NCBI RefSeq assembly: GCF_013315695.1
Contig: NZ_CP054353.1
Length of the DNA stretch: 64,000 bases
From: Escherichia coli
Lineage (GTDB): Bacteria; Pseudomonadota; Gammaproteobacteria; Enterobacterales; Enterobacteriaceae
Direction: 5' to 3' (one strand)
Program-made: the position numbers and the translations under genes
Shown: positions 6,038 through 37,795 of the stretch, piece after piece
How positions within the stretch are numbered: the first letter of the stretch is position 1
Layout: each line of letters starts with the position of its first letter
The notes under the pieces: generated by a model
Database searches by the model: none
What the model saw: the letters and a program-made list of their open reading frames with translations, nothing else
What the model was told of the DNA's origin: nothing

Positions 6038-6092
6038 GGTGATGCTGCCAACTTACTGATTTAGTGTATGATGGTGTTTTTGAGGTGCTCCA

Positions 6093-6368
6093 GTGGCTTC
6101 TGTTTCTATCAGCTGTCCCTCCTGTTCAGCTACTGACGGGGTGGTGCGTAACGGCAAAAGCACCGCCGGACATCAGCGCTATCTCTGCTCTCACTGCCGT
6201 AAAACATGGCAACTGCAGTTCACTTACACCGCTTCTCAACCCGGTACGCACCAGAAAATCATTGATATGGCCATGAATGGCGTTGGATGCCGGGCAACAG
6301 CCCGCATTATGGGCGTTGGCCTCAACACGATTTTACGTCACTTAAAAAACTCAGGCCGCAGTCGGTAA
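6093..6368 (+). CDS. insA: IS1 InsA (transposition inhibitor / N-terminal part of InsAB' transposase), 91 aa
   Basis: ORF translation [37 protein letters not shown]... matches IS1 InsA as I recall it. Confidence 0.95.
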
Positions 6369-6790
6369 CCTCGCGCATACAGCCGGGCAGTGACGTCATC
6401 GTCTGCGCGGAAATGGACGAACAGTGGGGCTATGTCGGGGCTAAATCGCGCCAGCGCTGGCTGTTTTACGCGTATGACAGGCTCCGGAAGACGGTTGTTG
6501 CGCACGTATTCGGTGAACGCACTATGGCGACGCTGGGGCGTCTTATGAGCCTGCTGTCACCCTTTGACGTGGTGATATGGATGACGGATGGCTGGCCGCT
6601 GTATGAATCCCGCCTGAAGGGAAAGCTGCACGTAATCAGCAAGCGATATACGCAGCGAATTGAGCGGCATAACCTGAATCTGAGGCAGCACCTGGCACGG
6701 CTGGGACGGAAGTCGCTGTCGTTCTCAAAATCGGTGGAGCTGCATGACAAAGTCATCGGGCATTATCTGAACATAAAACACTATCAATAA
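6287..6790 (+). CDS. insB: IS1 InsB reading frame (joined to InsA by -1 frameshift to make the transposase), 167 aa
   Basis: ORF translation [21 protein letters not shown]... matches IS1 InsB. A6C slippery motif at 6344-6350 lies in the insA/insB overlap. Confidence 0.93.
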
Positions 6791-6805
6791 GTTGGAGTCA
6801 TTACC

Positions 6806-6814
6806 AACGATGTC
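6806..6814. repeat. IS1 copy 1 target-site duplication, right (AACGATGTC)
   Basis: Matches 6029-6037 exactly. Confidence 0.9.
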
Positions 6815-6960
6815 AAGTAGATAAAAAAGGATAGATTTTGAATTCATTTGGCTTATCAGTCCGAATTCAGACAAATATAAACAAATCCCGCTTAATATTA
6901 AAATATACTAACTGGTAAAAGATATTACTTAAACGTGTAATTTCACTTTCTTTAAACAAC

Positions 6961-7030
6961 AAAAAACCGCCAAAATCAGGCGGTTATTTGTTGCTGGTTT
7001 GGTTCGCGGCCTTTCCAGCAGGTTCACTTG
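6961..7030. repeat. Intergenic repeat module, copy B (includes a terminator-like hairpin at 6961-6992)
   Basis: AAAAAACCGCCaaaatcaGGCGGTTATTTGTTGCTGGTTTGGTTCGCGGCCTTTCCAGCAGGTT is near-identical to 5917-5980. Confidence 0.75.
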
Positions 7031-7444: not shown

Positions 7445-8219
7445 AGATTATCCGGTTCTGTTTAAAGTCACGCAAAAAACCACCCCAGCGACGTTCATAG
7501 AATGGCACAATATGTTCGGTAATAAAGTGGCTAATTCCTTTTTCCCCTTTTTTCACCTGACAAATATCGATGGGTTCATCGCCAGGTATTGTATCGGTCG
7601 CTACACTTCCCGCCGCCTGAATAATTTCTTCGATATCACCATCGGCTTCAATGCCAATAAGTAAATTAGGCTGTGCCTCTTCGTTCTCTTTAATTGAACA
7701 AATAAAAGCACGCTTCACCGGCTTAATAGTTTTAAATAAGGTGGTGAGTGAATCAATCATTTGTGCTGGTGGCTCTGCGACTTCCGATAATATCAGCGAT
7801 TCACCGCCCTCCAGTACTTCCTGGCTGCTCAGCGGATTTCCTTCTTCACCAATCAACAAACTGATTTCACGCGGCATAAATTCTTTACCGGTTGGCAGTT
7901 TGGCATTAAGGAAGAGCGTTTCGCCAAGGGTCATCTCAAACAATGTGCGAACGGGCATTACGACAAATGCCTGTTCGTCTTCAACCGCCTGTTGAAGTGC
8001 TTCTAACGAGGTGAAAAAAGGAATGACGCTGGTGCCGTCTTCTTTTTCCCAGTGCTGTAAATCAAGTGCGCTATCTTCAACCACAGCCTCGCCCTGCGCC
8101 GCCGTACCAGGCACCCAGACGGTGGATTCCAGTAGAGTACGGAAAAAGGCCGGGCGGTGCGCCGGTTCGGTTGCTGCTTTTTCCAGCAGGTCTTCAAGTT
8201 CGTTTTTTATTTCTGACAT
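7443..8219 (-). CDS. sseB: Enhanced serine sensitivity protein SseB, 258 aa
   Basis: Track ORF 7443..8228 begins at a GTG; ATG at 8219 gives MSEIKNELEDLL..., which is the N-terminus I recall. Confidence 0.85.
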   Translation of the reverse strand: MSEIKNELEDLLEKAATEPAHRPAFFRTLLESTVWVPGTAAQGEAVVEDSALDLQHWEKEDGTSVIPFFTSLEALQQAVEDEQAFVVMPVRTLFEMTLGETLFLNAKLPTGKEFMPREISLLIGEEGNPLSSQEVLEGGESLILSEVAEPPAQMIDSLTTLFKTIKPVKRAFICSIKENEEAQPNLLIGIEADGDIEEIIQAAGSVATDTIPGDEPIDICQVKKGEKGISHFITEHIVPFYERRWGGFLRDFKQNRII

Positions 8220-8255
8220 AAGAACCACAATTCATTCAACGTTCGGGGCACAAGT

Positions 8256-8326
8256 GCCTGATGCGCCACGCTTATCAGGCCTACAAGGGAGTCGCAATCT
8301 ATTGGATTTTCGCAATTTGTAGGCCA
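8256..8326. repeat. REP (repetitive extragenic palindrome) element
   Basis: GCCTGATGCGCCACGCTTATCAGGCCTACA followed by TGTAGGCC; typical E. coli REP sequence. Confidence 0.7.
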
Positions 8327-8336
8327 AATAAGACGT

Positions 8337-9620
8337 TTACGCCGTTAACAGATTAGCAATCGTGCGCACACCAAGTCCCGTAGCACCCGCAGACCACTGT
8401 TCAACCGGCGCTTTACGGTAAGTCGCCGAGCAGTCGATATGCAGCCAGCCTTGCTGATAGTTCTCAACAAAGTGCGACAGGAAGCCCGCCGCCGTGCTTG
8501 CACCTGCCGGATACGCCGCGCTTCCGGTATTGTTCAGTTCGGCAAAGTTAGACGGCAGCTGGCTGCGGTGGAACTCCGCCAGCGGCAGACGCCAGAACGG
8601 TTCATTCTCTTGTGAGGCACTCGCCAGCAAGCGAGCGGCAAGCGCATCGTCAAAACTGAACAGCGCGTGATAATCATTACCCAGCGCGGTTTTCGCCGCC
8701 CCGGTGAGGGTCGCCGCATCAATGATCAGTTCCGGTTTCTGCGCACTGGCATCAATCAGGCCATCGGCCAGCACCAGACGCCCTTCCGCATCGGTGTTCA
8801 TCACTTCAACTTTTTTACCGTTGCGATAGGTAATAATATCGCCCAGTTTGAACGCGTTGCCGCTGATCAGGTTATCCGCACAGCAGAGGAACAGCTTCAC
8901 GCGCTTGTTCAGTCCGCGCGTAATGGCAAACGCCAGCGCTCCGGTAACCGTTGCCGCGCCGCCCATGTCCGACTTCATCGAGTCCATAAATGCGGTCTGT
9001 TTGATGCTGTAGCCGCCGGAATCAAAGGTGATGCCTTTACCAACCAGGCACGCGTACACTGGCGCTTCTTTATCGCCAGTTGGGTTGTAATCCAGCGCCA
9101 GCAATACCGGGGAACGTTCTGAACCGCGCCCGACGGTGTGCAGCCCCATATAACCTTGATCACGCAGATCTTCACCTTTGGTGATCCGATAAGTCACACG
9201 ATCGCCTGCGACGTTGCTGATCAGATCAACAGCACGCTGTGCCAGTTGCGATGGCCCCAGCTCTTCCGCCGGTGCGTTAATGGTGTCACGCACCCAGTCG
9301 ATGATCATCAGGCGGTTATCCAGTTCCTGACGCTGGGCATCGTCCAGATCCGGCCACTCCACTTTACGTGTGCCTTTCGGAGCTTTGTAACCTTGCCAGA
9401 ATGCCCAGCAACGATCCGCATCCCAGCCTTCACCGCTTAGCTGAACATGTTTGATGCCCAGACCGTCAATCTTGCGCGCCGCACGCTGGATCAGCCCCAG
9501 ATCGTCCGCTCCGTTCAAGTGCAGGGTAATACCATCATTATTAATACTGTAAGTCGCTTTTTCTCCCCAGCGCGCATCGGCAGGTTGGGTCGAGAGGGTA
9601 ATCTTCATCGCTTCTGTCAT
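8337..9620 (-). CDS. pepB: Peptidase B (M17 leucyl aminopeptidase family), 427 aa
   Basis: Full-length ORF; NTDAEGR motif; synteny. Confidence 0.95.
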
Positions 9621-26286: not shown

Positions 26287-26295
26287 TATCTTGCA
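26287..26295. repeat. IS1 copy 2 target-site duplication (TATCTTGCA)
   Basis: Identical 9-mer at 27064-27072 directly flanking the other end. Confidence 0.9.
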
Positions 26296-26310
26296 GGTAA
26301 TGACTCCAAC

Positions 26311-26814
26311 TTATTGATAGTGTTTTATGTTCAGATAATGCCCGATGACTTTGTCATGCAGCTCCACCGATTTTGAGAACGACAGCGACTTCCGTCCCAG
26401 CCGTGCCAGGTGCTGCCTCAGATTCAGGTTATGCCGCTCAATTCGCTGCGTATATCGCTTGCTGATTACGTGCAGCTTTCCCTTCAGGCGGGATTCATAC
26501 AGCGGCCAGCCATCCGTCATCCATATCACCACGTCAAAGGGTGACAGCAGGCTCATAAGACGCCCCAGCGTCGCCATAGTGCGTTCACCGAATACGTGCG
26601 CAACAACCGTCTTCCGGAGCCTGTCATACGCGTAAAACAGCCAGCGCTGGCGCGATTTAGCCCCGACATAGCCCCACTGTTCGTCCATTTCCGCGCAGAC
26701 GATGACGTCACTGCCCGGCTGTATGCGCGAGGTTACCGACTGCGGCCTGAGTTTTTTAAGTGACGTAAAATCGTGTTGAGGCCAACGCCCATAATGCGGG
26801 CTGTTGCCCGGCAT
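26311..26814 (-). CDS. insB: IS1 InsB reading frame, 167 aa
   Basis: Identical protein to the 6287..6790 ORF. Confidence 0.93.
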
Positions 26815-27008
26815 CCAACGCCATTCATGGCCATATCAATGATTTTCTGGTGCGTACCGGGTTGAGAAGCGGTGTAAGTGAACTGCAGTTGCCATGTTTT
26901 ACGGCAGTGAGAGCAGAGATAGCGCTGATGTCCGGCGGTGCTTTTGCCGTTACGCACCACCCCGTCAGTAGCTGAACAGGAGGGACAGCTGATAGAAACA
27001 GAAGCCAC
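26733..27008 (-). CDS. insA: IS1 InsA, 91 aa
   Basis: Identical protein to the 6093..6368 ORF. Confidence 0.95.
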
Positions 27009-27063
27009 TGGAGCACCTCAAAAACACCATCATACACTAAATCAGTAAGTTGGCAGCATCACC

Positions 27064-27072
27064 TATCTTGCA
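27064..27072. repeat. IS1 copy 2 target-site duplication (TATCTTGCA)
   Basis: Matches 26287-26295. Confidence 0.9.
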
Positions 27073-27084
27073 AAGGGATTGGTT

Positions 27085-27507
27085 ATGAACACACTACGTT
27101 ATTTTGATTTTGGAGCTGCCCGCCCCGTTTTGTTATTAATTGCCCGTATCGCCGTGGTCTTAATTTTCATTATTTTTGGTTTTCCCAAAATGATGGGCTT
27201 TGACGGTACGGTCCAATATATGGCCTCGCTGGGCGCGCCGATGCCGATGCTGGCAGCTATTATTGCGGTAGTTATGGAAGTGCCCGCCGCGATATTAATC
27301 GTGCTTGGCTTTTTCACCCGTCCGCTGGCGGTGCTGTTTATTTTCTACACGCTGGGTACAGCGGTAATTGGTCACCATTACTGGGATATGACCGGCGATG
27401 CGGTTGGGCCAAATATGATTAATTTCTGGAAGAATGTCAGTATCGCTAGCGCATTCCTGCTGTTGGCAATTACCGGGCCGGGGGCGATTTCTCTCGATCG
27501 CCGTTAG
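27085..27507 (+). CDS. yphA: DoxX-family inner membrane protein YphA, 140 aa
   Basis: ATG at 27085 with AAGGGA 6 nt upstream; four predicted transmembrane helices. Confidence 0.88.
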
Positions 27508-27513
27508 GAAAGA

Positions 27514-27544
27514 TGCCGGATGTGGCGTGAACGCCTTATCCGGC
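27514..27544. repeat. REP element
   Basis: GCCGGATGTGGCGTGAACGCCTTATCCGGC. Confidence 0.7.
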
Positions 27545-27554
27545 ATTTTATAAA

Positions 27555-28427
27555 TTACAGCAACGCAACCCGCAACGACATCTCTGAAGTTGTTGATTCC
27601 CCTGGTGCAAGCGCAATGAGGTCACCACCTTCCGGACGATGATGGTCATCCGGCGCATGGCTCATCGGTTCCAGACAGAAGAAATCAAACGCATATCCTT
27701 TATCAAACGCCGGGTCGGAAACAAAGATGAAATAACACGGTGCAGGTGGCGTCGTTTCCATGATGATGGCATAACCCTCCTGCGGCTGCTCGATGCGGGC
27801 CTTACCATTCCATCCGGCAAAACCATTGTTTACCCACTGGCGCGGCAACGGCGTGAGCTGGTTAAAATCCAGTTCCTGCGGTAGCTGCTCGCAAAACTCA
27901 CCCGCCAGCCACTGCTCCCGCTCCAGCCAGTAACCGCTCGCCTGTGCCTGAATCCGCGTTTGCGGCGACAACGGAAAATAAGGATGCCAGCCGGTACCAA
28001 ATGGCAGCGTCTCTGCCCCTTGATTGGTGACAGCGAGCGTCACCGTCAGCGTATCCGCCGTTAAATGAAATGCCTGGCTTACCCGATAGTGATAAACACC
28101 GCTGAGATGTTCATACACCAGACACAAGCTATCATCGCTGCGCGAGACACATTGCCACTCGCCCAACCAGCCATCGCCGTGTAGATAATGCGCATCCCAC
28201 TCAACATTCGGTTGCAGTTGATACTCACGCCCCTGCCAGACAAAACGGTTGCCGCTCACCCGGTTTGCAAATGGTACCAGCGGAAAACAAGAGGCATCGG
28301 TTGCCACACCGCTTTTTTTACCAGGACGTAGCAGCGGCGTCGTATCGCGCCAGAAGCCTTCGATTACGCCGCCCTGATCAGAAACGTCCAGCTTTAGCGG
28401 CCCGTGAGATAAGGTATAGATGGTCAT
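27555..28427 (-). CDS. yphB: Aldose 1-epimerase (mutarotase) family protein YphB, 290 aa
   Basis: Full-length ORF; family assignment from memory; synteny. Confidence 0.85.
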   Translation of the reverse strand: MTIYTLSHGPLKLDVSDQGGVIEGFWRDTTPLLRPGKKSGVATDASCFPLVPFANRVSGNRFVWQGREYQLQPNVEWDAHYLHGDGWLGEWQCVSRSDDSLCLVYEHLSGVYHYRVSQAFHLTADTLTVTLAVTNQGAETLPFGTGWHPYFPLSPQTRIQAQASGYWLEREQWLAGEFCEQLPQELDFNQLTPLPRQWVNNGFAGWNGKARIEQPQEGYAIIMETTPPAPCYFIFVSDPAFDKGYAFDFFCLEPMSHAPDDHHRPEGGDLIALAPGESTTSEMSLRVALL

Positions 28428-28438
28428 CCGCAGACTCC

Positions 28439-29500
28439 TTAATCCGGGAAATTAATCACAACTTTCCCACATTTGCCGCTTGCCATCAGTGCATAAGCAT
28501 CTCCCGCCTGTTCCAGCGAGAAACGGTGGGTAATGGCGTTACGCGGCCACAGTTTCCAGTCCGTTAAATCGTGGGCGCATTTTTCCATATGGAACAGACT
28601 GGTCACCCAGGAGCCGATAATCCGCCGTTGATGGTGCATCAGGTCGGCGCTAACCTCGAACTCGACTTTTCCGGTTTCACCAATGTAAACCACGCGTCCC
28701 CAGTCAGCAGTGGATTGCAGTGCCAGCAAGCGACCTGCGGCATTACCGGAACAATCGAGCGCAACATCCGCGCCGCCGTGGGTGAGTTCGGCGATAATCT
28801 GCGACAGACCTTCGGTCGTTGCTAAATAGCCGTGATCCATCACCCCTAACTGTTTCGCCATCGCCAGACGTTCCGGCAGCATATCAACGCCGATGATCCG
28901 TTTTGCACCGCGACCTTTCGCCAGCATCATCGCCATCATGCCGACCGGCCCCAGACCGACCACCAGCACGTTATCACTGCCGGAAACTTCGCCGCGCAAA
29001 ATCCCTTCATACGCTGTACCAACGCCGCAACTGATAAACGCACCATCTTCATAGCTCAGCGCGTCCGGGAGCAGGATCAGATCTTTTTCTTCCGCCAGCA
29101 GGTATTCAGCATGGCCGCCGTCACGCTGCCAGCCGTAAGCCGCTTTTCCTTCGCCAGTACAAGAGATAGGAAAACCACGACGGCAGTTCGGGCAAAAACC
29201 ACAGCCAGAAATGTGATACACCAGCACACGGTCGCCCTCTTTAAAATGGTGGCAGCCTAGCCCCATCGCCACAATTTGCCCGCACGGTTCATGACCGTTG
29301 ATAAATCCCTGGTATAACGGTTTATCGGGTGCCGCCGCCGTAGCGCGGTGCTGGTGGTAGATATAGTGGACATCGCTTCCGCAAATTCCGGAGGATTTCA
29401 TTTTGATCAGTACCTGGTTAATACCCGGCGTCGGCACCGCAACTTCCCGCAGATCGACGGTCGAATTTCCTGGTAAATAAGCTGCCAGCATCGTTTTCAT
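28439..29500 (-). CDS. yphC: Zn-dependent alcohol/polyol dehydrogenase family protein YphC, 353 aa
   Basis: ATG at 29500 with GAGGG upstream; GICGSDVH, GHEPCG, CGFCPNCRRG and VVGLGPVG motifs. Confidence 0.9.
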   Translation of the reverse strand: MKTMLAAYLPGNSTVDLREVAVPTPGINQVLIKMKSSGICGSDVHYIYHQHRATAAAPDKPLYQGFINGHEPCGQIVAMGLGCHHFKEGDRVLVYHISGCGFCPNCRRGFPISCTGEGKAAYGWQRDGGHAEYLLAEEKDLILLPDALSYEDGAFISCGVGTAYEGILRGEVSGSDNVLVVGLGPVGMMAMMLAKGRGAKRIIGVDMLPERLAMAKQLGVMDHGYLATTEGLSQIIAELTHGGADVALDCSGNAAGRLLALQSTADWGRVVYIGETGKVEFEVSADLMHHQRRIIGSWVTSLFHMEKCAHDLTDWKLWPRNAITHRFSLEQAGDAYALMASGKCGKVVINFPD

Positions 29501-29565
29501 AAATCCCTCATTAACAATACGATTAATTTTCATCCCTGCCGCACCCGCGCCAGGGGCGTTTAGGT

Positions 29566-30564
29566 TTAGCGTTTCGCTTTACTGCTTCGCTGAGTCAGCA
29601 AGATATTCGCCAGCACCGCCACCACGATGATGACGCCGCGCACCACCTGCTGGAAAAAGGAGTTAATCCCTAGCAGCACCAGACCGTTACCGATTAGCGT
29701 AATCACCAGTACGCCAAGCAGCGTACCGAACAACGAGCCGCGACCGCCGGAAAGCGCCGTACCGCCGACCACGACCGCGGCGATGACGTCAAACTCCAGA
29801 CCGTTTGCGGCACCTGCGTTACCGGAACCGAGGCGCGCCGCCAACAAAATGCCGGTCACCGCCGCTAATAATCCCGAAAGGGTAAAAATAAGAATGCGTA
29901 CCCGACGAACGTTAATACCGCACAACTGCGCTGCAGTGGCATTACCGCCAACAGCAAAAACCGAGCGCCCGAAAGCGGTTTTGCGGCTAATGAACACAAA
30001 CAGCGCAAATAACACCATCATGATCAGCGCGGATACCGGCACACCGAGAAATTGTCCGCCCAGCCAGTCCAGCACTTCGTTTTCGTTAATTGGCACTGGC
30101 AAGGCGTTCGTCATAAACAGCCCCATTCCGCGCAGGGCGCTCCATAAACCCAGCGTGGCAACAAAACTTGGCACATTAAACACGCCGCGCAGCACCCCGG
30201 CGAGCGTTCCCATCAGCGCACCTAACAGCAACACCAGCAGACAAGCAATCGCCAGCGGAACTTCAAATTGCAGCAAAAACGCCAGGCACACTGAAACAAA
30301 AGCCACCATCGGCCCAACGCTGACATCAATTTCACCGGAGATAATAATCAGCGTCATCGCCCAGGCGGCGATCCCGATGGTGGCAGCATCGCGCAGCACG
30401 TTCATCTGGTTATTCAATGAGATAAAGCCAGGCGCGTTCAGGGAGAAGACCAGATAAAGAATGGCAATCACCACCAGCAAACCGATCTCATTAATATGGC
30501 GACTGACAAATTGTTTGAGCGAGACGCTCTTGCCCTGCGGCAATGGTAATGACGAAGCAGACAT
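29566..30564 (-). CDS. yphD: Sugar ABC transporter permease YphD, 332 aa
   Basis: Multi-pass hydrophobic ORF; synteny with yphE/yphF. Confidence 0.9.
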   Translation of the reverse strand: MSASSLPLPQGKSVSLKQFVSRHINEIGLLVVIAILYLVFSLNAPGFISLNNQMNVLRDAATIGIAAWAMTLIIISGEIDVSVGPMVAFVSVCLAFLLQFEVPLAIACLLVLLLGALMGTLAGVLRGVFNVPSFVATLGLWSALRGMGLFMTNALPVPINENEVLDWLGGQFLGVPVSALIMMVLFALFVFISRKTAFGRSVFAVGGNATAAQLCGINVRRVRILIFTLSGLLAAVTGILLAARLGSGNAGAANGLEFDVIAAVVVGGTALSGGRGSLFGTLLGVLVITLIGNGLVLLGINSFFQQVVRGVIIVVAVLANILLTQRSSKAKR

Positions 30565-30588
30565 CTTCAGGTTCCTCGGTAAAATTCA

Positions 30589-32100
30589 TCAGTGCACAGA
30601 CAGAATGGCGGACATCAGCTCATCCACATTGACCGGCGAGTGAAACTCCTGCGAGAACGTACCGTGCTGTAATAACAGGATGCGGTCACACACCAGCGGC
30701 AACTCCTCCACTTCACTGGAGATAAACACCACGCTTTTTCCTTCGGCAGCCAGCTCGCGGACAATACGGTAAATCTGCTGTTTGGCTTCGATATCGACGC
30801 CACGCGTTGGCTCGTCGAGCAACAAAATCTGGCTGGCGGCATAGACCCAACGACCGATCACCACTTTTTGCTGATTGCCGCCAGAAAGCGTGCCGATGGG
30901 CGTTTCGCTACTGGCGGCCTTGACCGTCATCCGCTGCATCACCTCTTCGGTCAGGCGGCGGATGGTGGACCATTGCAGCACACCGTTGGCGCTGATTTTT
31001 TGCCGATTGGTCAGCACTGTATTTTCGTCAACGCCCAGCCAGGGAATGATCCCCGCTTCTTTGCGGTTTTCTGGCGTATAGCCAATGCCGCGTTTCAGCA
31101 TGTCGTCGTAATCGGGGCGCGTGATTTTCTCGCCGTTGATAACAATTTCGCCCTGTTCATACGTCTCCAGCCCAACTATGGCTTTCAACAATTCACTGCG
31201 CCCTGCCCCCAGCAGGCCAGCAATGCCGAGCACTTCGCCGCGACGTAGCGTAAAGCTGATATCCTCCAGCTTGGGCTTATGGCGTAACGCACGGACTTCC
31301 AGCACGGCTTGATCCATAATTTCCTGAGGGGCAACCGGCGCAATATCAACGTGATCGCGCCCGAGCATTAGCGACACAATATGATGCGTAGAGGTGTTTT
31401 CGAGCATCACATCGCCCGCTACCTGACCATCGCGCATAACGGTGGCACAGGAGGCAATGCGGCGAATTTCTTCCATCCGGTGGCTGACATAAATCACCGC
31501 CACGCCCAGTGCCGACATCTTTTTCACCGCGCTGATCACCAGTTCAACTTCCGCACTGGCAAGCGAGCTGGTGGGTTCATCAAGAATGACCACGCGCGGC
31601 TCGCCCTTCATCACCCGCGCAATTTCCACCAGTTGCTTTTGCGCCGGGCTTAGCGTTGAAACAAGTTGTTCAGGGCTAACGTCAACGCCCAACGCCTGCA
31701 AGCAACGTTGGGCGTCCTGCGCCATTTGCAGGTAATCAATCATGCCGTTGCGGCGGGGCCACTGACCGAGGCAGAGGTTTTCCGCCACCGTCAGCCCTTC
31801 CACCAGACTTAACTCCTGATAAACCGCACGAACCCCCAGTTCAGCGGCACGGCGAGTCAGCGTAGCTTCGTCACCTTCCAGTCGCGTCTCGCCAATCCAG
31901 ATATCACCGCTATCCGGACGTTCACTGCCGGTAAGCATTCGAATGAGGGTCGATTTGCCCGCGCCGTTTTTGCCTAACAGCGCACGAACTTCGCCTTTAT
32001 TGAGCGTGAAGTTAACGTTATCCAACGCAACGACGCCGGGATAACGCTTATTTCCTGCCACCACTTTTGCTACCGGGACTGCTTCTGTTGCCGTGAACAT
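30589..32100 (-). CDS. yphE: Sugar ABC transporter ATP-binding protein YphE (two nucleotide-binding domains), 503 aa
   Basis: Two Walker A motifs (GKNGAGKST, GLLGAGRSEL) and two signature motifs (LSPAQKQ, LSGGNQQK). Confidence 0.92.
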   Translation of the reverse strand: MFTATEAVPVAKVVAGNKRYPGVVALDNVNFTLNKGEVRALLGKNGAGKSTLIRMLTGSERPDSGDIWIGETRLEGDEATLTRRAAELGVRAVYQELSLVEGLTVAENLCLGQWPRRNGMIDYLQMAQDAQRCLQALGVDVSPEQLVSTLSPAQKQLVEIARVMKGEPRVVILDEPTSSLASAEVELVISAVKKMSALGVAVIYVSHRMEEIRRIASCATVMRDGQVAGDVMLENTSTHHIVSLMLGRDHVDIAPVAPQEIMDQAVLEVRALRHKPKLEDISFTLRRGEVLGIAGLLGAGRSELLKAIVGLETYEQGEIVINGEKITRPDYDDMLKRGIGYTPENRKEAGIIPWLGVDENTVLTNRQKISANGVLQWSTIRRLTEEVMQRMTVKAASSETPIGTLSGGNQQKVVIGRWVYAASQILLLDEPTRGVDIEAKQQIYRIVRELAAEGKSVVFISSEVEELPLVCDRILLLQHGTFSQEFHSPVNVDELMSAILSVH

Positions 32101-32122
32101 AGGGACCTCTGCGAATCAGCGA

Positions 32123-33106
32123 TTAGGGCAGACCATCAACGTGCGTTGCCAGCCACTGTTTACCGTCTTCCGTTTTGGTATAGAGATCGATAGGCACCTG
32201 AATCACTTTTTCACCGTCGGCTTGTTTATTGATAACCTTCAAAGTTTGCGCGAAAACAGCATTGCCCATTTTCTTACCGGAAATATCCACCACCGCTTTC
32301 AACACCTGATTGTTTTCCAGCTCCTGAGCAATTTCAGTGGTCATATCCGAACCGAAAACAGCAATTTTTCCGGCCTGATTTTGATTACGTACCGCTTTTA
32401 CCGCGCCGAGTGTCGCTCCGCCCGATTCCCCCATAATGGCGTTGAGATCCGGCGTGGAGATAATCAGTTTTTCACCAACGGAAATCGCTTTATCTAAAAC
32501 AGTCCCTTCCTGATTAGCGACTATTTGCGCGCCGGGAACGCGGGATTTTAATACTTCTTCAAATCCTTTACGTCGCTGCACACAAACTTCAAAGGCTTCG
32601 CAATTGATGACGGCAATTTTCGGCTGGTCAATTTTGTTGGCAATAAAATAATCGGCGGCAGCATTACCCAGTTTTTTACCAAATTCCAGCGGATCGCCGA
32701 CCAGATACGCCGAGACATATTTATCGACGCCTTTTTGATTAATACAGGTGTTGTAGCAAATCACCGGAATACCCGCTTCACTGGCGCGACGAACGGTACG
32801 GCTACTGCCATTTTCAGACACTGCCGATAAAATAATGGCATCGACATTACGCGCCACGAGGGTATCAACAAAGGTACTTTCTTTCGAAATATCACCCTGG
32901 GCGTTAGTTTCAATTAACTGTACCTGTACTGAAGAATCTTTTGCCGCATCCTGAACGCCCTGACGCACGCCAGCGTAATATCCCTGGGTATCAAGGTATA
33001 TTGCGCCAATGGTCATTTCTTTATCCGCAGCCCTGGCAAATAGTGCGCTACCTAATAGCGTAGCCATTAATAATAGATTACGGGTTGTTCTCATTTTTTT
33101 AGGCAT
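32123..33106 (-). CDS. yphF: Periplasmic sugar-binding protein YphF, 327 aa
   Basis: Signal peptide MPKKMRTTRNLLLMATLLGSALFARA; periplasmic binding protein family by position and size. Confidence 0.9.
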   Translation of the reverse strand: MPKKMRTTRNLLLMATLLGSALFARAADKEMTIGAIYLDTQGYYAGVRQGVQDAAKDSSVQVQLIETNAQGDISKESTFVDTLVARNVDAIILSAVSENGSSRTVRRASEAGIPVICYNTCINQKGVDKYVSAYLVGDPLEFGKKLGNAAADYFIANKIDQPKIAVINCEAFEVCVQRRKGFEEVLKSRVPGAQIVANQEGTVLDKAISVGEKLIISTPDLNAIMGESGGATLGAVKAVRNQNQAGKIAVFGSDMTTEIAQELENNQVLKAVVDISGKKMGNAVFAQTLKVINKQADGEKVIQVPIDLYTKTEDGKQWLATHVDGLP

Positions 33107-33202
33107 AGTGCCTCCTGTAGGGTTTTTATTTACAACGGCTTATTTTAATTATTTGAGCGTGAGCGGCAGCGCGTGCCGCTCAAATATTACAGTTAATAAG
33201 GT

Positions 33203-36200
33203 TTAGTGAACGCGGTTAAAAATAAAAGGCATCACGGTGGTGAATAATGCTGCTTTCGGCCAGGCCGGATTAATCGCCGTCAATTCAGCGCGAGCAGATT
33301 CATAGTGCGCAACCTCCCCGAGTCCCGCGGACGCCAGCATCGCCACCATCAGGCATTTTTCTTTATGCTGCTGTTGTAAATCGCCATACAGCGACAACAG
33401 GTCAGGTTGTGAAACAGCAAAGAAATCCGCCTCAATACTGGTTTTCGCCATCTCTTGCGCCCACTGTTTCATTTCACTAAACAGTTGCTGTGCGGTTTGC
33501 TGTTCACCCAGCAGTCGCAGCGCCATTCCTTGCCAGAAGAGATAATCAACCGGCTGATCGTTGTAATAACTGTGAATGTTAATGGTGCGATCGCCAGTCG
33601 CCGCCAGACGTAAACAACGCATCGCTTCAGTTTCATCACCCTGCGCGTTGGCGCATATCGCCTGCCAGAACCAGATGTCGTTATCAGTTTGCCCCGGTAA
33701 ACGGCCTTCGCTTAAATTCTCCGGATAATGCAGCGCGGCATGAAGCAGTTCGCTGGCCTGCTGCGACTCTCTGGCATCAAGATGCTGCCAGGCGCGTAAT
33801 AACTGGTTGAGGATAAACTGACTGGTGATCTTCCCTTCCCCGCCTTCCCACGGGTGGAATTTGCGCGTGGCGAGAATGTCCGCCGCTTTGTCTGCCTGCC
33901 CCGTGAGATGCCACAAATTGAGCAGTTCTGCGGTCATGTCGTCGCGTTTCAGCGCAATTTCCAGATTATTTTCCAGACGCGCCAGTCGTTTCTCCGGTGT
34001 GGCTCCGCTTAACTTATCCAGCAAATCCCGTTCGAAAAGCAGACGTGCATCCTGCGGCGCAAGCTGATAAGCATTATCAAGATAACGCGCGGCCAGCTCA
34101 TAATCGTGCTGCTTATTCCACGCATGGATCGCTAACCCGCGCCAGCCGTCGGCAAACTCCGGCGACATCTCTACGCAACGTTGCCATAAGGCAATGGCTT
34201 TGCCGTAGCTACGCTTGTTGTAGTAGAAGCAGGCCAATAAATGACGGGCAAACCAGCACTCTTCAATACTCTCCAGCGCCGCCACTTCTTCCAGCGTATT
34301 CGGGAAACGGACAAACTGTGGGAAGACATCAATGGCTTTTGCGACCAGTTCGCCGCGTTTAGCTTTCGGCAATAAACTCGCCTGCAGATAAAGCGGCAGC
34401 GTGCGCTGGCAGTCCAGTGCGTTCAGCATCTCTGCCGCCAGGGCGGGCATGCCCCAGTTAATCAGTTGCCCGGCGGTCATCAGGGCGTTAACGTCTCGTC
34501 CCTGACACAGACCGCGCCACTGCGCGAGGGCTGATTCGCTACGACCATCGAACCAGTTCAGCCACCACAGAGTGGCGTTCAGCGGATAATCGCGCAGCAG
34601 TTTCTCGCGCTGCAAACGCGCGTTGTCCTGACGACCACTTAACACCAGCAGCAGATTATGCAGGCAAAGCACTTCCTGATTGGTTGGGCAGGCGCGAAGA
34701 CTTTGTTGGCAAAAATCCAGACCAGCGTCGAAGTGACCATTACGCGCCGCCAGTCGTGCCAGACCATAATAGCCACCGGCTTTGCTGTTGCCGCTCCAGA
34801 CCGCCCGCCAGAAATCCTCTTCGGCTTGTTGATATTGTCCCTGACGTTCGTAAGCACTGGCGCGAATCAAACTGGCCTGTCCGCACTGCGGATTTTTGTT
34901 CAGCGCATGTGCGCGTTTTAGCGCCTGAGTGGCATACGCCACCGCTTGCGGGAAATCGGCGCGGTTATATTCCAGCATCGCCAGCGCCAGGTTACAGCGA
35001 TAATCCAGCGGATCCAGCGCCACGCCGCGCAGGTAGTAATCGAACGGTGAACGGCTGGCGTGATGATATTGCTCCAGATGCTGACCGATAAACCAGGCTT
35101 CATCTGTACTGGTAATGTCTTGTGCTGACAGTGGCGCTTTGGCGACGTCCGGCAACGGCAACGCTTGCGGCTGATGTTCCTGATAACTCAGTATGATATT
35201 GCCGTCGGCATCGGAGAGCTCAATGGTTAGTCTGTCAGGATTGATACCGTGCAACACGCCCTGGATGGCGGTCGCTGGCATCAGTGCCACGGCATCATCA
35301 AGTAACGCGTTGCATTTGCCGATTTCGCGGATCGCCAGGCGGTATCCGTTCAACGGAGAGATGGCATACAGCCCCCACTCAATCCCCCGCTCGCTACGCT
35401 GGAGTTTTATCACCGCATCGCGGGAGGCATTTTGCACCATGCCCAGAGAATGGTAAGGCAGGAAATACTGCTCGAAACGCTTCTCTTCGTACGCATCAAG
35501 CCAGGTAAAATCAGGCTGGTTATCGGCAAAAATACCGGTCATCAGTTCGATATATGGGCCGTTATTGTCGGTCAGGCTCTTATCCCACGCCTGGCCGAAT
35601 TCACTGTGTCCCCAGCTCCACTGTTTTTTACCTGGCGCGATGTGGTGGTTGGCAACGTGTAGCAAACCGCCATCTTCATCGTGACACCATGCGCCAACAA
35701 AATCGTACTGCGATTTTTCGGCCATATACGAAGTCGGCACTGGCACATTTTTATAGCGAGAGATGTCCACTCCGGCGGAGTAGTCCACTTTGTAGTAAGT
35801 GCCGGTGGCGATGGGGAAAGCGGAGACGGCCCGTTTGCCGTGATCAAACACCGCCGTTACATCCGGCGGGAAGACGCTCTGATGCCCTTCACCCCCTTTC
35901 ACTGCCGGGTTGGCCCACCACAAGAAATGACGCGGCGTGGCGTTGCCGTTATAGACGCGGCTGGCGATTTCCAGCGCCGCCCGGTCAGGGCGCAGGGTGA
36001 AACCTGTCATCACCTGTAAACCATGCATCGGCTCCGTTTCGCCTACCCACACCGTCTGTGCGCCGTCTTCATGGGCTTCGAGGGTGAAATCAACGGGCAT
36101 AAAGGTGGTCGGGCGATGGTGTTGCGGCCAGTTAAACTCAATCCCGCCGGAGATCCACGGTCCCAGCAGCCCCACCAGCGCAGGTTTAATGACTTCATTG

Positions 36201-36484
36201 TGATAGACAAAATCGCGCTGTTTCACTTTATCCCATGCGCGATGCACCCGACCGCCCAGTTCCGGCAGGATCATCACTTTGATGTAGTCGTTTTCCAGCC
36301 ACACCGTCTGCCAGGATTTCAGGGTTTTCTGCTCGCTCAGCGTATCGGTCACGCCGTAGGGATAAACCGCGCCGGACGATCCCTGATAAACGCGATTTTC
36401 CAGGAACATGGGATGTATATCCTGCGGCCCGGTTTCATAGGTCGGGATCTCAACGCGCTCTTGCCACACTTTTACTGGAGTCAT
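33203..36484 (-). CDS. yphG: Large uncharacterised cytoplasmic protein YphG with C-terminal TPR-like repeats, 1093 aa
   Basis: ATG at 36484 with GAGGG upstream; product starts MTPVKVWQERVEIPTYETG. Repeated helical TPR-like segments in the C-terminal half. Track ORF extends 31 codons upstream. Confidence 0.88.
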   Translation of the reverse strand: MTPVKVWQERVEIPTYETGPQDIHPMFLENRVYQGSSGAVYPYGVTDTLSEQKTLKSWQTVWLENDYIKVMILPELGGRVHRAWDKVKQRDFVYHNEVIKPALVGLLGPWISGGIEFNWPQHHRPTTFMPVDFTLEAHEDGAQTVWVGETEPMHGLQVMTGFTLRPDRAALEIASRVYNGNATPRHFLWWANPAVKGGEGHQSVFPPDVTAVFDHGKRAVSAFPIATGTYYKVDYSAGVDISRYKNVPVPTSYMAEKSQYDFVGAWCHDEDGGLLHVANHHIAPGKKQWSWGHSEFGQAWDKSLTDNNGPYIELMTGIFADNQPDFTWLDAYEEKRFEQYFLPYHSLGMVQNASRDAVIKLQRSERGIEWGLYAISPLNGYRLAIREIGKCNALLDDAVALMPATAIQGVLHGINPDRLTIELSDADGNIILSYQEHQPQALPLPDVAKAPLSAQDITSTDEAWFIGQHLEQYHHASRSPFDYYLRGVALDPLDYRCNLALAMLEYNRADFPQAVAYATQALKRAHALNKNPQCGQASLIRASAYERQGQYQQAEEDFWRAVWSGNSKAGGYYGLARLAARNGHFDAGLDFCQQSLRACPTNQEVLCLHNLLLVLSGRQDNARLQREKLLRDYPLNATLWWLNWFDGRSESALAQWRGLCQGRDVNALMTAGQLINWGMPALAAEMLNALDCQRTLPLYLQASLLPKAKRGELVAKAIDVFPQFVRFPNTLEEVAALESIEECWFARHLLACFYYNKRSYGKAIALWQRCVEMSPEFADGWRGLAIHAWNKQHDYELAARYLDNAYQLAPQDARLLFERDLLDKLSGATPEKRLARLENNLEIALKRDDMTAELLNLWHLTGQADKAADILATRKFHPWEGGEGKITSQFILNQLLRAWQHLDARESQQASELLHAALHYPENLSEGRLPGQTDNDIWFWQAICANAQGDETEAMRCLRLAATGDRTINIHSYYNDQPVDYLFWQGMALRLLGEQQTAQQLFSEMKQWAQEMAKTSIEADFFAVSQPDLLSLYGDLQQQHKEKCLMVAMLASAGLGEVAHYESARAELTAINPAWPKAALFTTVMPFIFNRVH

Positions 36485-36601
36485 GGTGCCCTCAATATTA
36501 ACAAGACATACTGAATTAAAAGATTTGTGGCAGTGTATTGAACAATCTGGCAATGTTTTCGCGGAATAATCACGCAATTAACTAAACAAGGTTTAGTGAA
36601 G

Positions 36602-37795
36602 ATGAGAGCCTGCATTAATAATCAACAGATTCGCCACCATAACAAATGCGTGATTCTGGAACTGCTGTACCGGCAAAAGCGCGCCAATAAATCAACGCTG
36701 GCCCGGCTGGCGCAAATTTCGATTCCGGCGGTCAGTAATATTTTGCAGGAACTGGAAAGCGAAAAACGGGTGGTGAATATCGACGATGAAAGTCAGACGC
36801 GCGGACATAGTAGCGGTACATGGCTGATTGCGCCGGAAGGTGACTGGACGCTGTGTCTGAACGTGACGCCCACCAGCATTGAGTGTCAGGTCGCTAATGC
36901 CTGTTTAAGTCCGAAAGGCGAATTTGAGTATTTACAGATTGATGCACCGACGCCGCAGGCGCTGCTGTCCGAAATCGAAAAATGCTGGCATCGCCACCGT
37001 AAATTGTGGCCGGACCGTACCATCAACCTGGCGCTGGCAATCCACGGTCAGGTTGATCCGGTGACTGGCGTGTCGCAAACCATGCCGCAAGCGCCGTGGA
37101 CAACGCCGGTTGAGGTAAAGTATCTGCTGGAAGAGAAGCTCGGCATTCGGGTGATGGTCGATAATGACTGCGTGATGCTGGCGCTGGCGGAGAAATGGCA
37201 AAATAATTCGCAGGAACGGGATTTCTGCGTGATCAACGTTGATTACGGTATTGGCTCGTCGTTCGTGATTAACGAGCAAATTTATCGCGGCAGTTTGTAT
37301 GGTAGCGGACAGATTGGTCACACCATCGTTAATCCGGATGGTGTCGTCTGCGACTGCGGACGTTACGGCTGCCTGGAAACCGTCGCCTCGTTAAGCGCAT
37401 TAAAAAAACAGGCGCGGGTATGGCTAAAATCACAACCGGTTAATACTCAGCTTGATCCTGAAAAACTGACAACAGCGCAGTTAATCGCTGCCTGGCAGAG
37501 TGGAGAACCGTGGATCACCAGTTGGGTTGATCGCTCTGCCAACGCCATTGGTTTGAGTCTGTATAACTTCCTCAACATCCTCAATATTAATCAGATTTGG
37601 TTGTACGGTCGCAGTTGTGCCTTTGGTGAGAACTGGCTTAATACCATTATTCGCCAGACGGGATTTAACCCGTTCGACCGCGACGAAGGACCGAGCGTGA
37701 AAGCGACGCAAATTGGCTTTGGGCAATTAAGCCGCGCACAGCAGGTGCTGGGAATTGGCTATTTGTATGTTGAGGCGCAGTTACGGCAGATTTAA
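36602..37795 (+). CDS. yphH: ROK-family (NagC/XylR-like) transcriptional regulator YphH, 397 aa
   Basis: N-terminal helix-turn-helix; CDCGRYGCLE zinc motif typical of ROK proteins; divergent from yphG. Start at ATG 36602 (track ORF starts at GTG 36596). Confidence 0.88.
   Translation: MRACINNQQIRHHNKCVILELLYRQKRANKSTLARLAQISIPAVSNILQELESEKRVVNIDDESQTRGHSSGTWLIAPEGDWTLCLNVTPTSIECQVANACLSPKGEFEYLQIDAPTPQALLSEIEKCWHRHRKLWPDRTINLALAIHGQVDPVTGVSQTMPQAPWTTPVEVKYLLEEKLGIRVMVDNDCVMLALAEKWQNNSQERDFCVINVDYGIGSSFVINEQIYRGSLYGSGQIGHTIVNPDGVVCDCGRYGCLETVASLSALKKQARVWLKSQPVNTQLDPEKLTTAQLIAAWQSGEPWITSWVDRSANAIGLSLYNFLNILNINQIWLYGRSCAFGENWLNTIIRQTGFNPFDRDEGPSVKATQIGFGQLSRAQQVLGIGYLYVEAQLRQI

Follow-up and report, generated by a model that had tools for sequence, protein, structure and literature searches.

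The yph locus of Escherichia coli: YphG as a predicted mutarotase-fold protein with a TPR solenoid and a possible role in the use of galactose-type sugars

The yph genes, yphA to yphH, occupy positions 27085-37795 (10.7 kb) of the window, a stretch of 64,000 nucleotides of the Escherichia coli chromosome (NZ_CP054353.1). An earlier note had described them from the sequence as a complete, functionally unassigned cluster for sugar uptake and catabolism with a very large TPR-containing protein, YphG. This was essentially right, although YphG was under-described and the completeness of the cluster overstated. We are tempted to suggest, at slightly less than an even chance, that YphG is a non-canonical enzyme of mutarotase fold acting on a monosaccharide-sized galacto-type sugar, in a carbohydrate-utilisation module controlled by the ROK-family regulator YphH. 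The suggestion is built on the observed gene content, fold, residue conservation, conserved neighbourhoods and purifying selection.

In YphG, Pfam recognised DUF5107 at residues 39-324 (E 3e-55) and TPR_16 twice (E 3e-6 and 4e-4), and no signal peptide is present. The AlphaFold model, which used an alignment of 79 full-length homologues (predicted local distance difference test, pLDDT, 95; predicted template modelling score, pTM, 0.93), consists of a beta-sandwich (about residues 1-345), a second beta domain (about 357-435) and about 35 helices spanning residues 460-1092. The N-terminal domain has the beta-sandwich fold of galactose mutarotase. The helical part is a TPR superhelix, which in Foldseek comparisons matched the TPR solenoids of OGT, Ctr9 and Ski3 and gave no match to alpha/alpha-toroid glycosidases. 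The solenoid noticed earlier is thus real, but the best-conserved part of the protein is the mutarotase-fold domain instead, and the locus therefore encodes two mutarotase-fold proteins, YphG and YphB. The longest yphG frame starts from an upstream TTG (1124 aa); since homologues align from residue 4 of the 1093-aa form, the ATG at 36484 is supported as the start.

A stand-alone protein of 332 aa, here called c35, is encoded beside a YphG homologue in Paenibacillus and Ruminiclostridium. In Pfam it scores against DUF5107 as well as DUF4432, and the His, His and Glu of canonical mutarotases are all present in it. HHalign joined YphG to c35 with a probability of 96% (E 2.5e-9) and c35 to YphB, over the full length, with a probability of 50% (E 1.6e-4). 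By these alignments c35 would be a useful evolutionary intermediate leading from the mutarotases to the YphG domain. Through c35, the catalytic His acid of mutarotases (TNHxYFNL/WHPYF) falls on Asn192 of YphG, which is Asn in 78 of the 79 homologues, so that YphG is best not classed among the canonical mutarotases. The Glu base, found in the ALEP motif of c35, aligns in a low-confidence tail with E313 (motif YIELM), which is invariant (79/79).

Across the 79 aligned homologues 14 columns are invariant and about 60 nearly so; apart from R782 and E880, they are for the most part polar or aromatic residues of the N-terminal domain. Conserved residues of that domain include E116, H122, H123, R124, N179, H215, K286, K287, D306, N322, Q323 and D325. 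In the helical part R782 (79/79) and E880 (77/79) are conserved together with F876, W563, Y483 and Q472. YphG thus combines the mutarotase fold with a remodelled site, and the TPR solenoid probably belongs to its functional unit.

The sole solved relative of YphG by sequence is BDI_1685 of Parabacteroides distasonis (PDB 5CD6), with 575 residues in the chain (580 deposited) against 1093 in YphG and 21% identity; the description of the entry names no function. Identity to the aldose 1-epimerases (GalM, YeaD and YphB; Pfam Aldose_epim and the related DUF4432) is 8-15%. In contrast to these, YphG has a second beta domain and a 630-residue TPR solenoid with invariant residues, and is three to four times their size. 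Structure comparisons, a search for DUF5107 in the full-text literature and the source names of the homologues revealed neither a CAZy family nor a characterised relative for YphG; the names ("DUF5107 domain-containing", "hypothetical", TPR- or pilus-assembly-type labels) were uninformative. We found no characterised precedent for this combination of an acid-less mutarotase fold and a long TPR solenoid, which occurs from E. coli to Bacteroidota in galactoside-degrading loci.

The YphG family is large, with 5642 representatives at 50% identity (E <=0.001), 1149 of them under 1e-30 and most of 1,050-1,140 residues. Over the N-terminal 450 aa, E. coli and Bacteroidota sequences share 55-59% identity. 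When one genome per species was searched (100,044 species genomes), at least 588 loci matched. Neighbourhoods were counted in the 80 loci kept, in which open reading frames were called and clustered and a gene was taken as near if it lay within four genes of the YphG homologue. These loci represent Proteobacteria, Bacteroidota, Firmicutes and Actinobacteria, and come from Enterobacterales, Aeromonas, Photobacterium, Bacteroidota, Paenibacillus, Bacillus, Lachnospiraceae, Ruminococcaceae and Bifidobacterium.

A regulator of AraC or ROK type was near in 57/80 loci, a transporter in 54/80, a glycoside hydrolase (GH) of family GH2_20, GH35, GH36 or GH97 or of a related unannotated family (c73) in 43/80, and a mutarotase (YphB-type, GalM-type or c35) in 14/80. 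The recurring unit consists of a regulator, a monosaccharide-type transporter and YphG, often accompanied by a mutarotase and galactosidases. The commonest transporter, a XylE-like sugar porter, is encoded directly upstream on the same strand in 23 of the 80 loci (median gap 14 nt), and GH2_20 directly downstream in 13 (median gap 11 nt). The neighbouring GH2_20 protein matches PDB 8U01, with its GH2 domains confirmed by Pfam, and this subfamily is reported to include beta-galactosidases active on decorated xyloglucan or pectin (PMC12243196). Further neighbours include GH35, a GH97 alpha-galactosidase, a GH36-like enzyme, a GalM-type mutarotase, a GDSL esterase, GH30, GH95 and GH31. In Parabacteroides or Bacteroides the gene order is GH31, AraC, MFS, the YphG homologue, two GH2_20, GH95 and GH35. 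Loci of marine Flavobacteriia contain sulfatases and SusC/SusD, as assigned by reading of the sequences, and in two Lachnospiraceae the partner ABC system has a binding protein that is either YtfQ-like (galactofuranose-type, with two permeases) or MglB-like.

In E. coli the transporter is YphDEF, and the full ABC importer proposed earlier was confirmed, with its single permease, double ATPase and binding protein. Its architecture is that of a CUT2 system, as seen from family-level NCBIfam matches and the signal peptide of YphF. YphD scored 226 bits with RbsC (cut-off 398) and 221 with AraH, and YphE 456 bits with AraG (cut-off 689), 436 with XylG and 424 with AlsA. YphF gave weak matches to the allose binding protein (64 bits, cut-off 335), MglB (59), LsrB (55) and RbsB (52), and its nearest solved structure is 5HSG. 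The matches of YphDEF are exclusively to monosaccharide systems (RbsC, AraH, AraG, XylG, AlsA, MglB), and every one of them lies under its curated equivalog cut-off, so that no equivalence to an importer of known substrate was found in NCBIfam. The earlier note had thought of an unusual sugar or glycoside; the transporters, a CUT2 ABC system here and a XylE-like porter elsewhere, point to a ligand of monosaccharide size and not to a large glycoside.

The locus is of a known kind, a regulator-controlled CUT2 sugar operon, and shares with rbs, ara, xyl, als, mgl and ytfQRT-yjfF a binding protein, a fused double ATPase, an RbsC/AraH-type permease and a dedicated regulator. Unlike those operons, its components reach no curated equivalog cut-off, YphF being distant from all (<=64 bits), and it has no kinase or isomerase but does have YphG. 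The yphFED genes were given as a putative sugar ABC transporter in a 2023 review (PMC10305011), and the yph ABC system was among those picked for fitness defects in a screen of uropathogenic E. coli (PMC11032443). The YphF protein was reported to rise 3- to 4.6-fold on levoglucosan compared with fructose, alongside many other transporters (PMC8753852). We rejected levoglucosan as a lead to the YphF substrate, since XylF, MalE, UgpB, YtfQ and MglA rose too in that study; a general relief of catabolite repression would account for the rise.

From these observations the following sequence of events can be proposed. YphDEF would import a monosaccharide-sized sugar, most likely galactose-configured, of the kind freed from plant or algal glycans by alpha- and beta-galactosidases. 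In the cytoplasm YphG would bind it in the mutarotase-fold pocket, where the Glu base E313 appears to be kept and the His acid lost (Asn192), and which the solenoid residues R782 and E880, invariant or nearly so, probably complete. There YphG would perform a conversion of ring-opening type other than plain anomerisation. YphB, a canonical small mutarotase, would supply or remove the right anomer, and YphC, in loci of the E. coli type only, would add an NAD(P)-dependent redox step, after which the product would pass to pathways encoded elsewhere. That the ligand is small and always the same is suggested by the kinds of transporter and by the very high conservation of the YphG domain; that it is galactose-configured, or released along with galactose, is suggested by the glycosidase partners. 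The fold and the invariant Glu suggest a chemistry that sets out as in mutarotation, the ring being opened at the anomeric centre. Plain anomerisation is made less likely by the loss of the His, by the frequent occurrence of a separate, true mutarotase and by the existence of secreted family members.

Several points weigh against this proposal. E. coli already owns transporters and a pathway for galactose, arabinose and xylose. Direct HHalign comparisons of DUF5107 with the GalM or YphB profiles, both global and local, gave probabilities below 1%. Besides the loss of the canonical His acid, the segment with the first His is deleted in YphG, and E313 is mapped on the catalytic Glu through a stretch of low confidence at the end of the alignment. 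The C-terminal part forms a genuine TPR solenoid of the kind associated with protein interaction, and a second mutarotase-type gene is near in only the 14 loci mentioned above. Moreover, signal peptides are found in about a quarter of the aligned homologues, those more distantly related; one secreted homologue is encoded in a SusC/SusD locus between two GH16 genes and another beside GH30, a pattern that one would sooner expect of glycan-active enzymes than of monosaccharide isomerases. Besides, we infer the class of ligand, the reaction that YphG performs, the order in which the steps follow one another and the role of YphH as a repressor.

Some of these observations would also suit a different role, that of a new glycoside hydrolase or lyase whose beta-sandwich is catalytic and acts on a small glycoside or an anhydro-sugar. 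Substrates such as glyceryl or methyl galactoside or a 1,6-anhydro-hexose would fit a CUT2 system or a sugar porter; YphB would anomerise the freed sugar and YphC oxidise the aglycone or product, following a logic like that of LacY, LacZ and GalM. The large size of YphG and the conservation of the whole 1,050-1,140-residue architecture would be in keeping with such an enzyme, as would the occurrence of both cytoplasmic and signal-peptide members, those in SusC/SusD loci with GH16 or beside GH30 included. The tight neighbours are exo-glycosidases (GH2_20, GH35, GH95, GH31, GH36, GH97), GPH-type glycoside transporters adjoin the homologues of Photobacterium, Citrobacter sp. FP75 and a Clostridium, the His acid of mutarotases has given way to another residue, and a separate mutarotase would be redundant if YphG itself were one. 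Nevertheless, the commonest partners are monosaccharide-type transporters, the N-terminal identity of 55-59% across phyla fits a single invariant small substrate, and a CAZy family or a solved, characterised relative is lacking as an anchor. We consider this explanation unlikely and place it second, behind the mutarotase-fold enzyme and ahead of the sensing scaffold and the polyol system discussed next, with a dead remnant in the last place.

That YphG is a non-enzymatic sugar-sensing scaffold, whose mutarotase-like domain binds the sugar and whose TPR solenoid signals to YphH or AraC-type regulators or to the transporter, appears improbable. The 630 C-terminal residues do form a genuine TPR superhelix like those of OGT, Ctr9 and Ski3, a regulator gene is near in 57/80 loci and the canonical mutarotase acid is absent. 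However, secreted members in polysaccharide-utilisation loci cannot sense for cytoplasmic regulators, a cluster of invariant Glu, His and Arg is what one expects in an active site, and the partner regulators belong to unrelated families (ROK and AraC), which speaks against a specific protein-protein interface; a regulator beside a catabolic gene is in any case expected. We hold it equally improbable that the E. coli locus is mainly a pentitol or hexitol system in which YphDEF imports the polyol, YphC oxidises it and YphB and YphG handle the ring forms. YphC is indeed a Zn enzyme of sorbitol/xylitol/threonine-dehydrogenase type, and homologues in Firmicutes lie near an aldo-keto reductase, a Gfo-type enzyme and a tagaturonate-reductase-like enzyme. 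Yet only 9/80 loci have a YphC-like gene, the minimal enterobacterial locus has none, and the partners across the family are galactosidases and aldose transporters. An FGGY pentulose kinase (706 bits, cut-off 409) encoded within 10 kb in five Enterobacterales loci would also favour a polyol, but we rejected it as a member of the system because it is part of a neighbouring, separate ABC operon that is absent from the E. coli site. Finally, the locus might be a decaying, cryptic remnant without current function in E. coli, in favour of which one could cite the scarcity of published phenotype evidence, IS1 in or near yphA in a few genomes and the truncated YphG products in sequence collections. 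This is very improbable and largely refuted by the selection analysis described below; the frames are also all intact and the locus is almost universal in the species.

Galactose and galactoside systems such as LacY-LacZ-GalM and the transporter-GalM-GalK operon of Bacteroides resemble the yph loci in having a transporter, a large enzyme, a mutarotase, a regulator and often beta-galactosidases. They differ in that YphG is unrelated to LacZ or GalK and the yph locus has no Leloir-pathway genes. A wider and somewhat unlikely reading takes YphG and its DUF5107-TPR relatives as founding members of a new class of carbohydrate-active enzymes with a very wide distribution, in which a mutarotase-like sandwich, deprived of the canonical His acid and completed by invariant residues of a TPR solenoid, would perform a chemistry so far undescribed for this fold on a galactose-type sugar. 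Candidate reactions would be hydrolysis of small glycosides or anhydro-sugars, or furanose-pyranose interconversion. If this were true, the class would supply a missing step by which gut, soil and marine bacteria finish plant or algal glycan side chains.

The claim that substrate and pathway are not established was borne out. The full-text literature, with most subscription journals outside its scope, yielded no substrate, pathway or regulon for the yph locus and no mention of DUF5107, and matches to yph names mostly concerned Bacillus subtilis YphC (EngA), the yphC typing locus of Helicobacter pylori or unrelated abbreviations. The yph locus is a known uncharacterised locus, and the present work restates that gap; the comparative evidence turns it into a sharper, testable hypothesis. 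New here are the size of the family, the consistent neighbours across phyla, the lineage-specific nature of yphC and the ABC genes, and the purifying selection. The yph genes are core genes within the uncharacterised fraction of the best-studied bacterial genome. Members of the YphG family are encoded in loci for glycan breakdown in Bacteroidota and Lachnospiraceae of the gut, in Paenibacillus and Mucilaginibacter of soil and in Flavobacteriia of the sea. Assigning an activity to YphG would annotate thousands of genes and could reveal an unrecognised step in the catabolism of galactosides or hemicellulose side chains, and E. coli offers an easy genetic system in which to test its function.

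Table 1. Positions of the yph genes, of putative control elements and IS1, and of related genes in other loci (window positions unless another record is named)
Feature	Record	Position	Strand	Description
IS1	window	26296-27063	-	768 bp, terminal inverted repeats, 9-bp target duplication; strand is that of the transposase
yphA	window	27085-27507	+	140 aa, DoxX family, inner-membrane; convergent with yphB
yphB	window	27555-28427	-	290 aa, small aldose-1-epimerase (mutarotase) family
yphC	window	28439-29533	-	364 aa, Zn-dependent medium-chain dehydrogenase (MDR)
yphD	window	29566-30564	-	332 aa, single ABC permease
yphE	window	30589-32100	-	503 aa, fused double ATPase
yphF	window	32123-33106	-	327 aa, periplasmic binding protein, signal peptide ending ...ALFARA/AD
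GC-rich hairpin TGAGCGGCA-N5-TGCCGCTCA	window	33160-33182	-	in the 96-nt gap, right after the yphG stop and before yphF
yphG	window	33203-36484	-	1093 aa, cytoplasmic; DUF5107, second beta domain and TPR solenoid
yphG/yphH putative control region	window	36485-36601	.	117 bp, divergent; sequence blocks kept across Enterobacterales
yphH	window	36602-37795	+	397 aa, ROK-family transcription factor; divergent from yphG
yphA homologue	L010 (strain RIT691)	8200-8691		
yphA homologue	L015 (Cedecea neteri)	6586-7008		
yphA homologue	L019 (Enterobacter sp. Ag1)	8126-8548		
c35 gene	L026	13303-14301		
c35 gene	L042 and L044	7853-8851		
Separate ABC operon with FGGY kinase	L009	870-7056		
Separate ABC operon with FGGY kinase	L015	20-6202		
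Separate ABC operon with FGGY kinase	L019	1561-7742		

The gene identities and family assignments given earlier were correct (Table 1). YphB matches PDB 3NRE (b2544, a structural-genomics aldose 1-epimerase) over its full length (E 2e-202), and its canonical His/His/Glu motifs LHGDGW, WHPYF and CLEP are present and aligned with those of c35, so that family sequence, fold and motifs are all those of an aldose 1-epimerase. YphC has the catalytic Zn ligands, the structural Cys4 site and the GxGxxG motif of its family, with the motifs GICGSD, GHEPCG, CGFCPNCRRGFPISC and GLGPVG. None of its 21 NCBIfam family matches attained an equivalog cut-off, the best, L-threonine 3-dehydrogenase (169 bits) and scyllo-inosose 3-dehydrogenase (168 bits), being far under theirs. 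The PDB relatives of YphC include an alcohol dehydrogenase, a xylitol dehydrogenase and threonine dehydrogenases (E about 1e-36). YphA showed a weak NCBIfam match to a HvfX/DoxX-type model. Homologues that are 74-81% identical to it are found directly beside yphH in three other Enterobacterales, on the side of the locus opposite to that in E. coli; since yphA accompanies yphH and yphG despite its changed position, this gene order hints at a functional link between them.

YphH proved to be a divergent ROK-family regulator, as had been noted, with an N-terminal helix-turn-helix, the ROK sugar-kinase-like fold and the zinc motif CxCGxxGCxE (present as CDCGRYGCLE). It has the same length, domain layout and zinc motif as NagC and Mlc. 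It differs from them in scoring, over residues 9-342, only 112 bits with the NagC model (cut-off 650) and 109 bits with the Mlc model (cut-off 530). YphH was described in 2014 as the third, uncharacterised ROK repressor of E. coli, placed in a small clade of its own and without the conserved GR motif in the linker for operator recognition (PMC4288165), and it was still entered as unknown in 2022 (PMC9308461).

In the spacer between yphG and yphH, compared in 11 species, an ACTAAAC..GTT.A.T..ATTGCGTGA block near the yphH start and a ACACTGCCA-like block recur in Budvicia, Hafnia, Cedecea and Citrobacter as well as in E. coli; they are candidate sites for YphH or CRP. A perfect palindrome upstream of yphH in E. 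coli, ACTAAAC-CTT-GTTTAGT, was rejected as an operator, given that other genera do not preserve its palindromy. A generic scan for sigma-70 promoters and terminators gave counts equal to the shuffled expectation and nothing in the spacer. Between yphG and yphF the stem of the hairpin is kept, with a variable loop, in E. albertii, Enterobacter sp. BIGb0383 and strain RIT691. It was rejected as a canonical terminator because in E. coli it lacks a U-run downstream. Its role may instead be that of an attenuator, of an element stabilising the mRNA or of a palindrome bound by a protein before an internal yphF promoter. An Rfam scan of the window from 25 to 40 kb matched no family. A near-identical 16-mer, AAYAAGGTTTAGTGAA, occurs at 33195-33210, in the coding end of yphG at its stop, and at 36585-36600, at the ribosome-binding site and start of yphH. 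It was dismissed as a signal, one repeat of 13-15 nt per 12 kb being about what chance gives.

All eight reading frames are intact, as had been noted, and their lengths equal those of the RefSeq annotation of a 100%-identical E. coli record, in which the gene order is hcaD, yphA, yphB, yphC, yphD, yphE, yphF, yphG, yphH, glyA. The intergenic gaps from yphF to yphB are 11-32 nt. Of 5426 complete E. coli genomes, 5425 match the region, 5370 of them over 80% or more of its length. Compared with E. albertii, the ratio of nonsynonymous to synonymous substitution rates (dN/dS) is 0.01-0.08 for yphA-F and yphH (yphA 0.065, yphB 0.079, yphC 0.010, yphH 0.035), and the yph genes are under strong purifying selection. 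The yphG gene of E. albertii (L008 10001-13282) shows two gap positions in the nucleotide alignment. In E. coli SCPM-O-B-8794 (L007 2286-4811) the longest yphG frame ends at about 840 codons though the protein match spans residues 1-1093 at 95%, and there may therefore be a frameshift or stop in that genome. Many truncated E. coli YphG products (314-741 aa) are present in the protein collection, some of which may be contig-end fragments.

The earlier description of the cluster as complete holds in so far as the genes are all present, but not for a complete catabolic pathway, as there is no kinase, isomerase or aldolase. Moreover, in related Enterobacterales (Budvicia aquatica, Citrobacter, Cedecea, Hafnia and Enterobacter sp. 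Ag1) the locus is reduced to yphH, yphG, an MFS sugar porter and a yphB-like gene. This minimal locus occupies the same chromosomal position as in E. coli, adjoining hcaT and csiE. Among the loci compared, the full yphBCDEF set is confined to close relatives of E. coli, and Enterobacter sp. BIGb0383 combines the ABC system with the porter; the E. coli lineage has thus added yphC and the ABC system. In several Enterobacterales the separate ABC operon just beyond yphH (Table 1) encodes a RhaS/LsrB-like binding protein, an ATPase, two permeases and the FGGY pentulose kinase.

At the left edge of the cluster lies an IS1 (Table 1) whose end sequence is an exact match and in which all three features sought of an IS1 were found. 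Its target duplication, TATCTTGCA, is present at 26287-26295 and 27064-27072, as judged against the uninterrupted hcaD-yphA spacer of another record (L001), which reads ...cacat TATCTTGCA aagggattggtt ATG. The right end lies 21 bp upstream of the yphA ATG with the transposase pointing away from yphA, so the element parts yphA from any promoter formerly upstream. The earlier suggestion that IS1 may alter expression at this edge is possible for yphA alone; yphB-G are out of reach because their transcription starts at the opposite end of the cluster, from a promoter 9.4 kb off, and runs towards yphA. Thirteen of the 5426 genomes have IS1 in or beside the hcaD-yphA spacer through separate events. 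In E. coli GN25 (L090 509-1708) it lies inside yphA, giving two annotated pseudogene fragments, and in isolate CE12-1 a divergent IS1 occupies the spacer. This edge thus seems to be a recurrent IS1 target.

A second IS1 is present at about 6038-6805, in the orientation opposite to that of the copy beside yphA; it is also found in the 100%-identical record of E. coli AF3, between sseA and timP. As an inverted pair, the two copies could bring about an inversion of the roughly 19.5 kb between them, which contain sseB, pepB, the isc operon, trmJ, suhB, yfhR, csiE, hcaT, hcaR and the hca operon.

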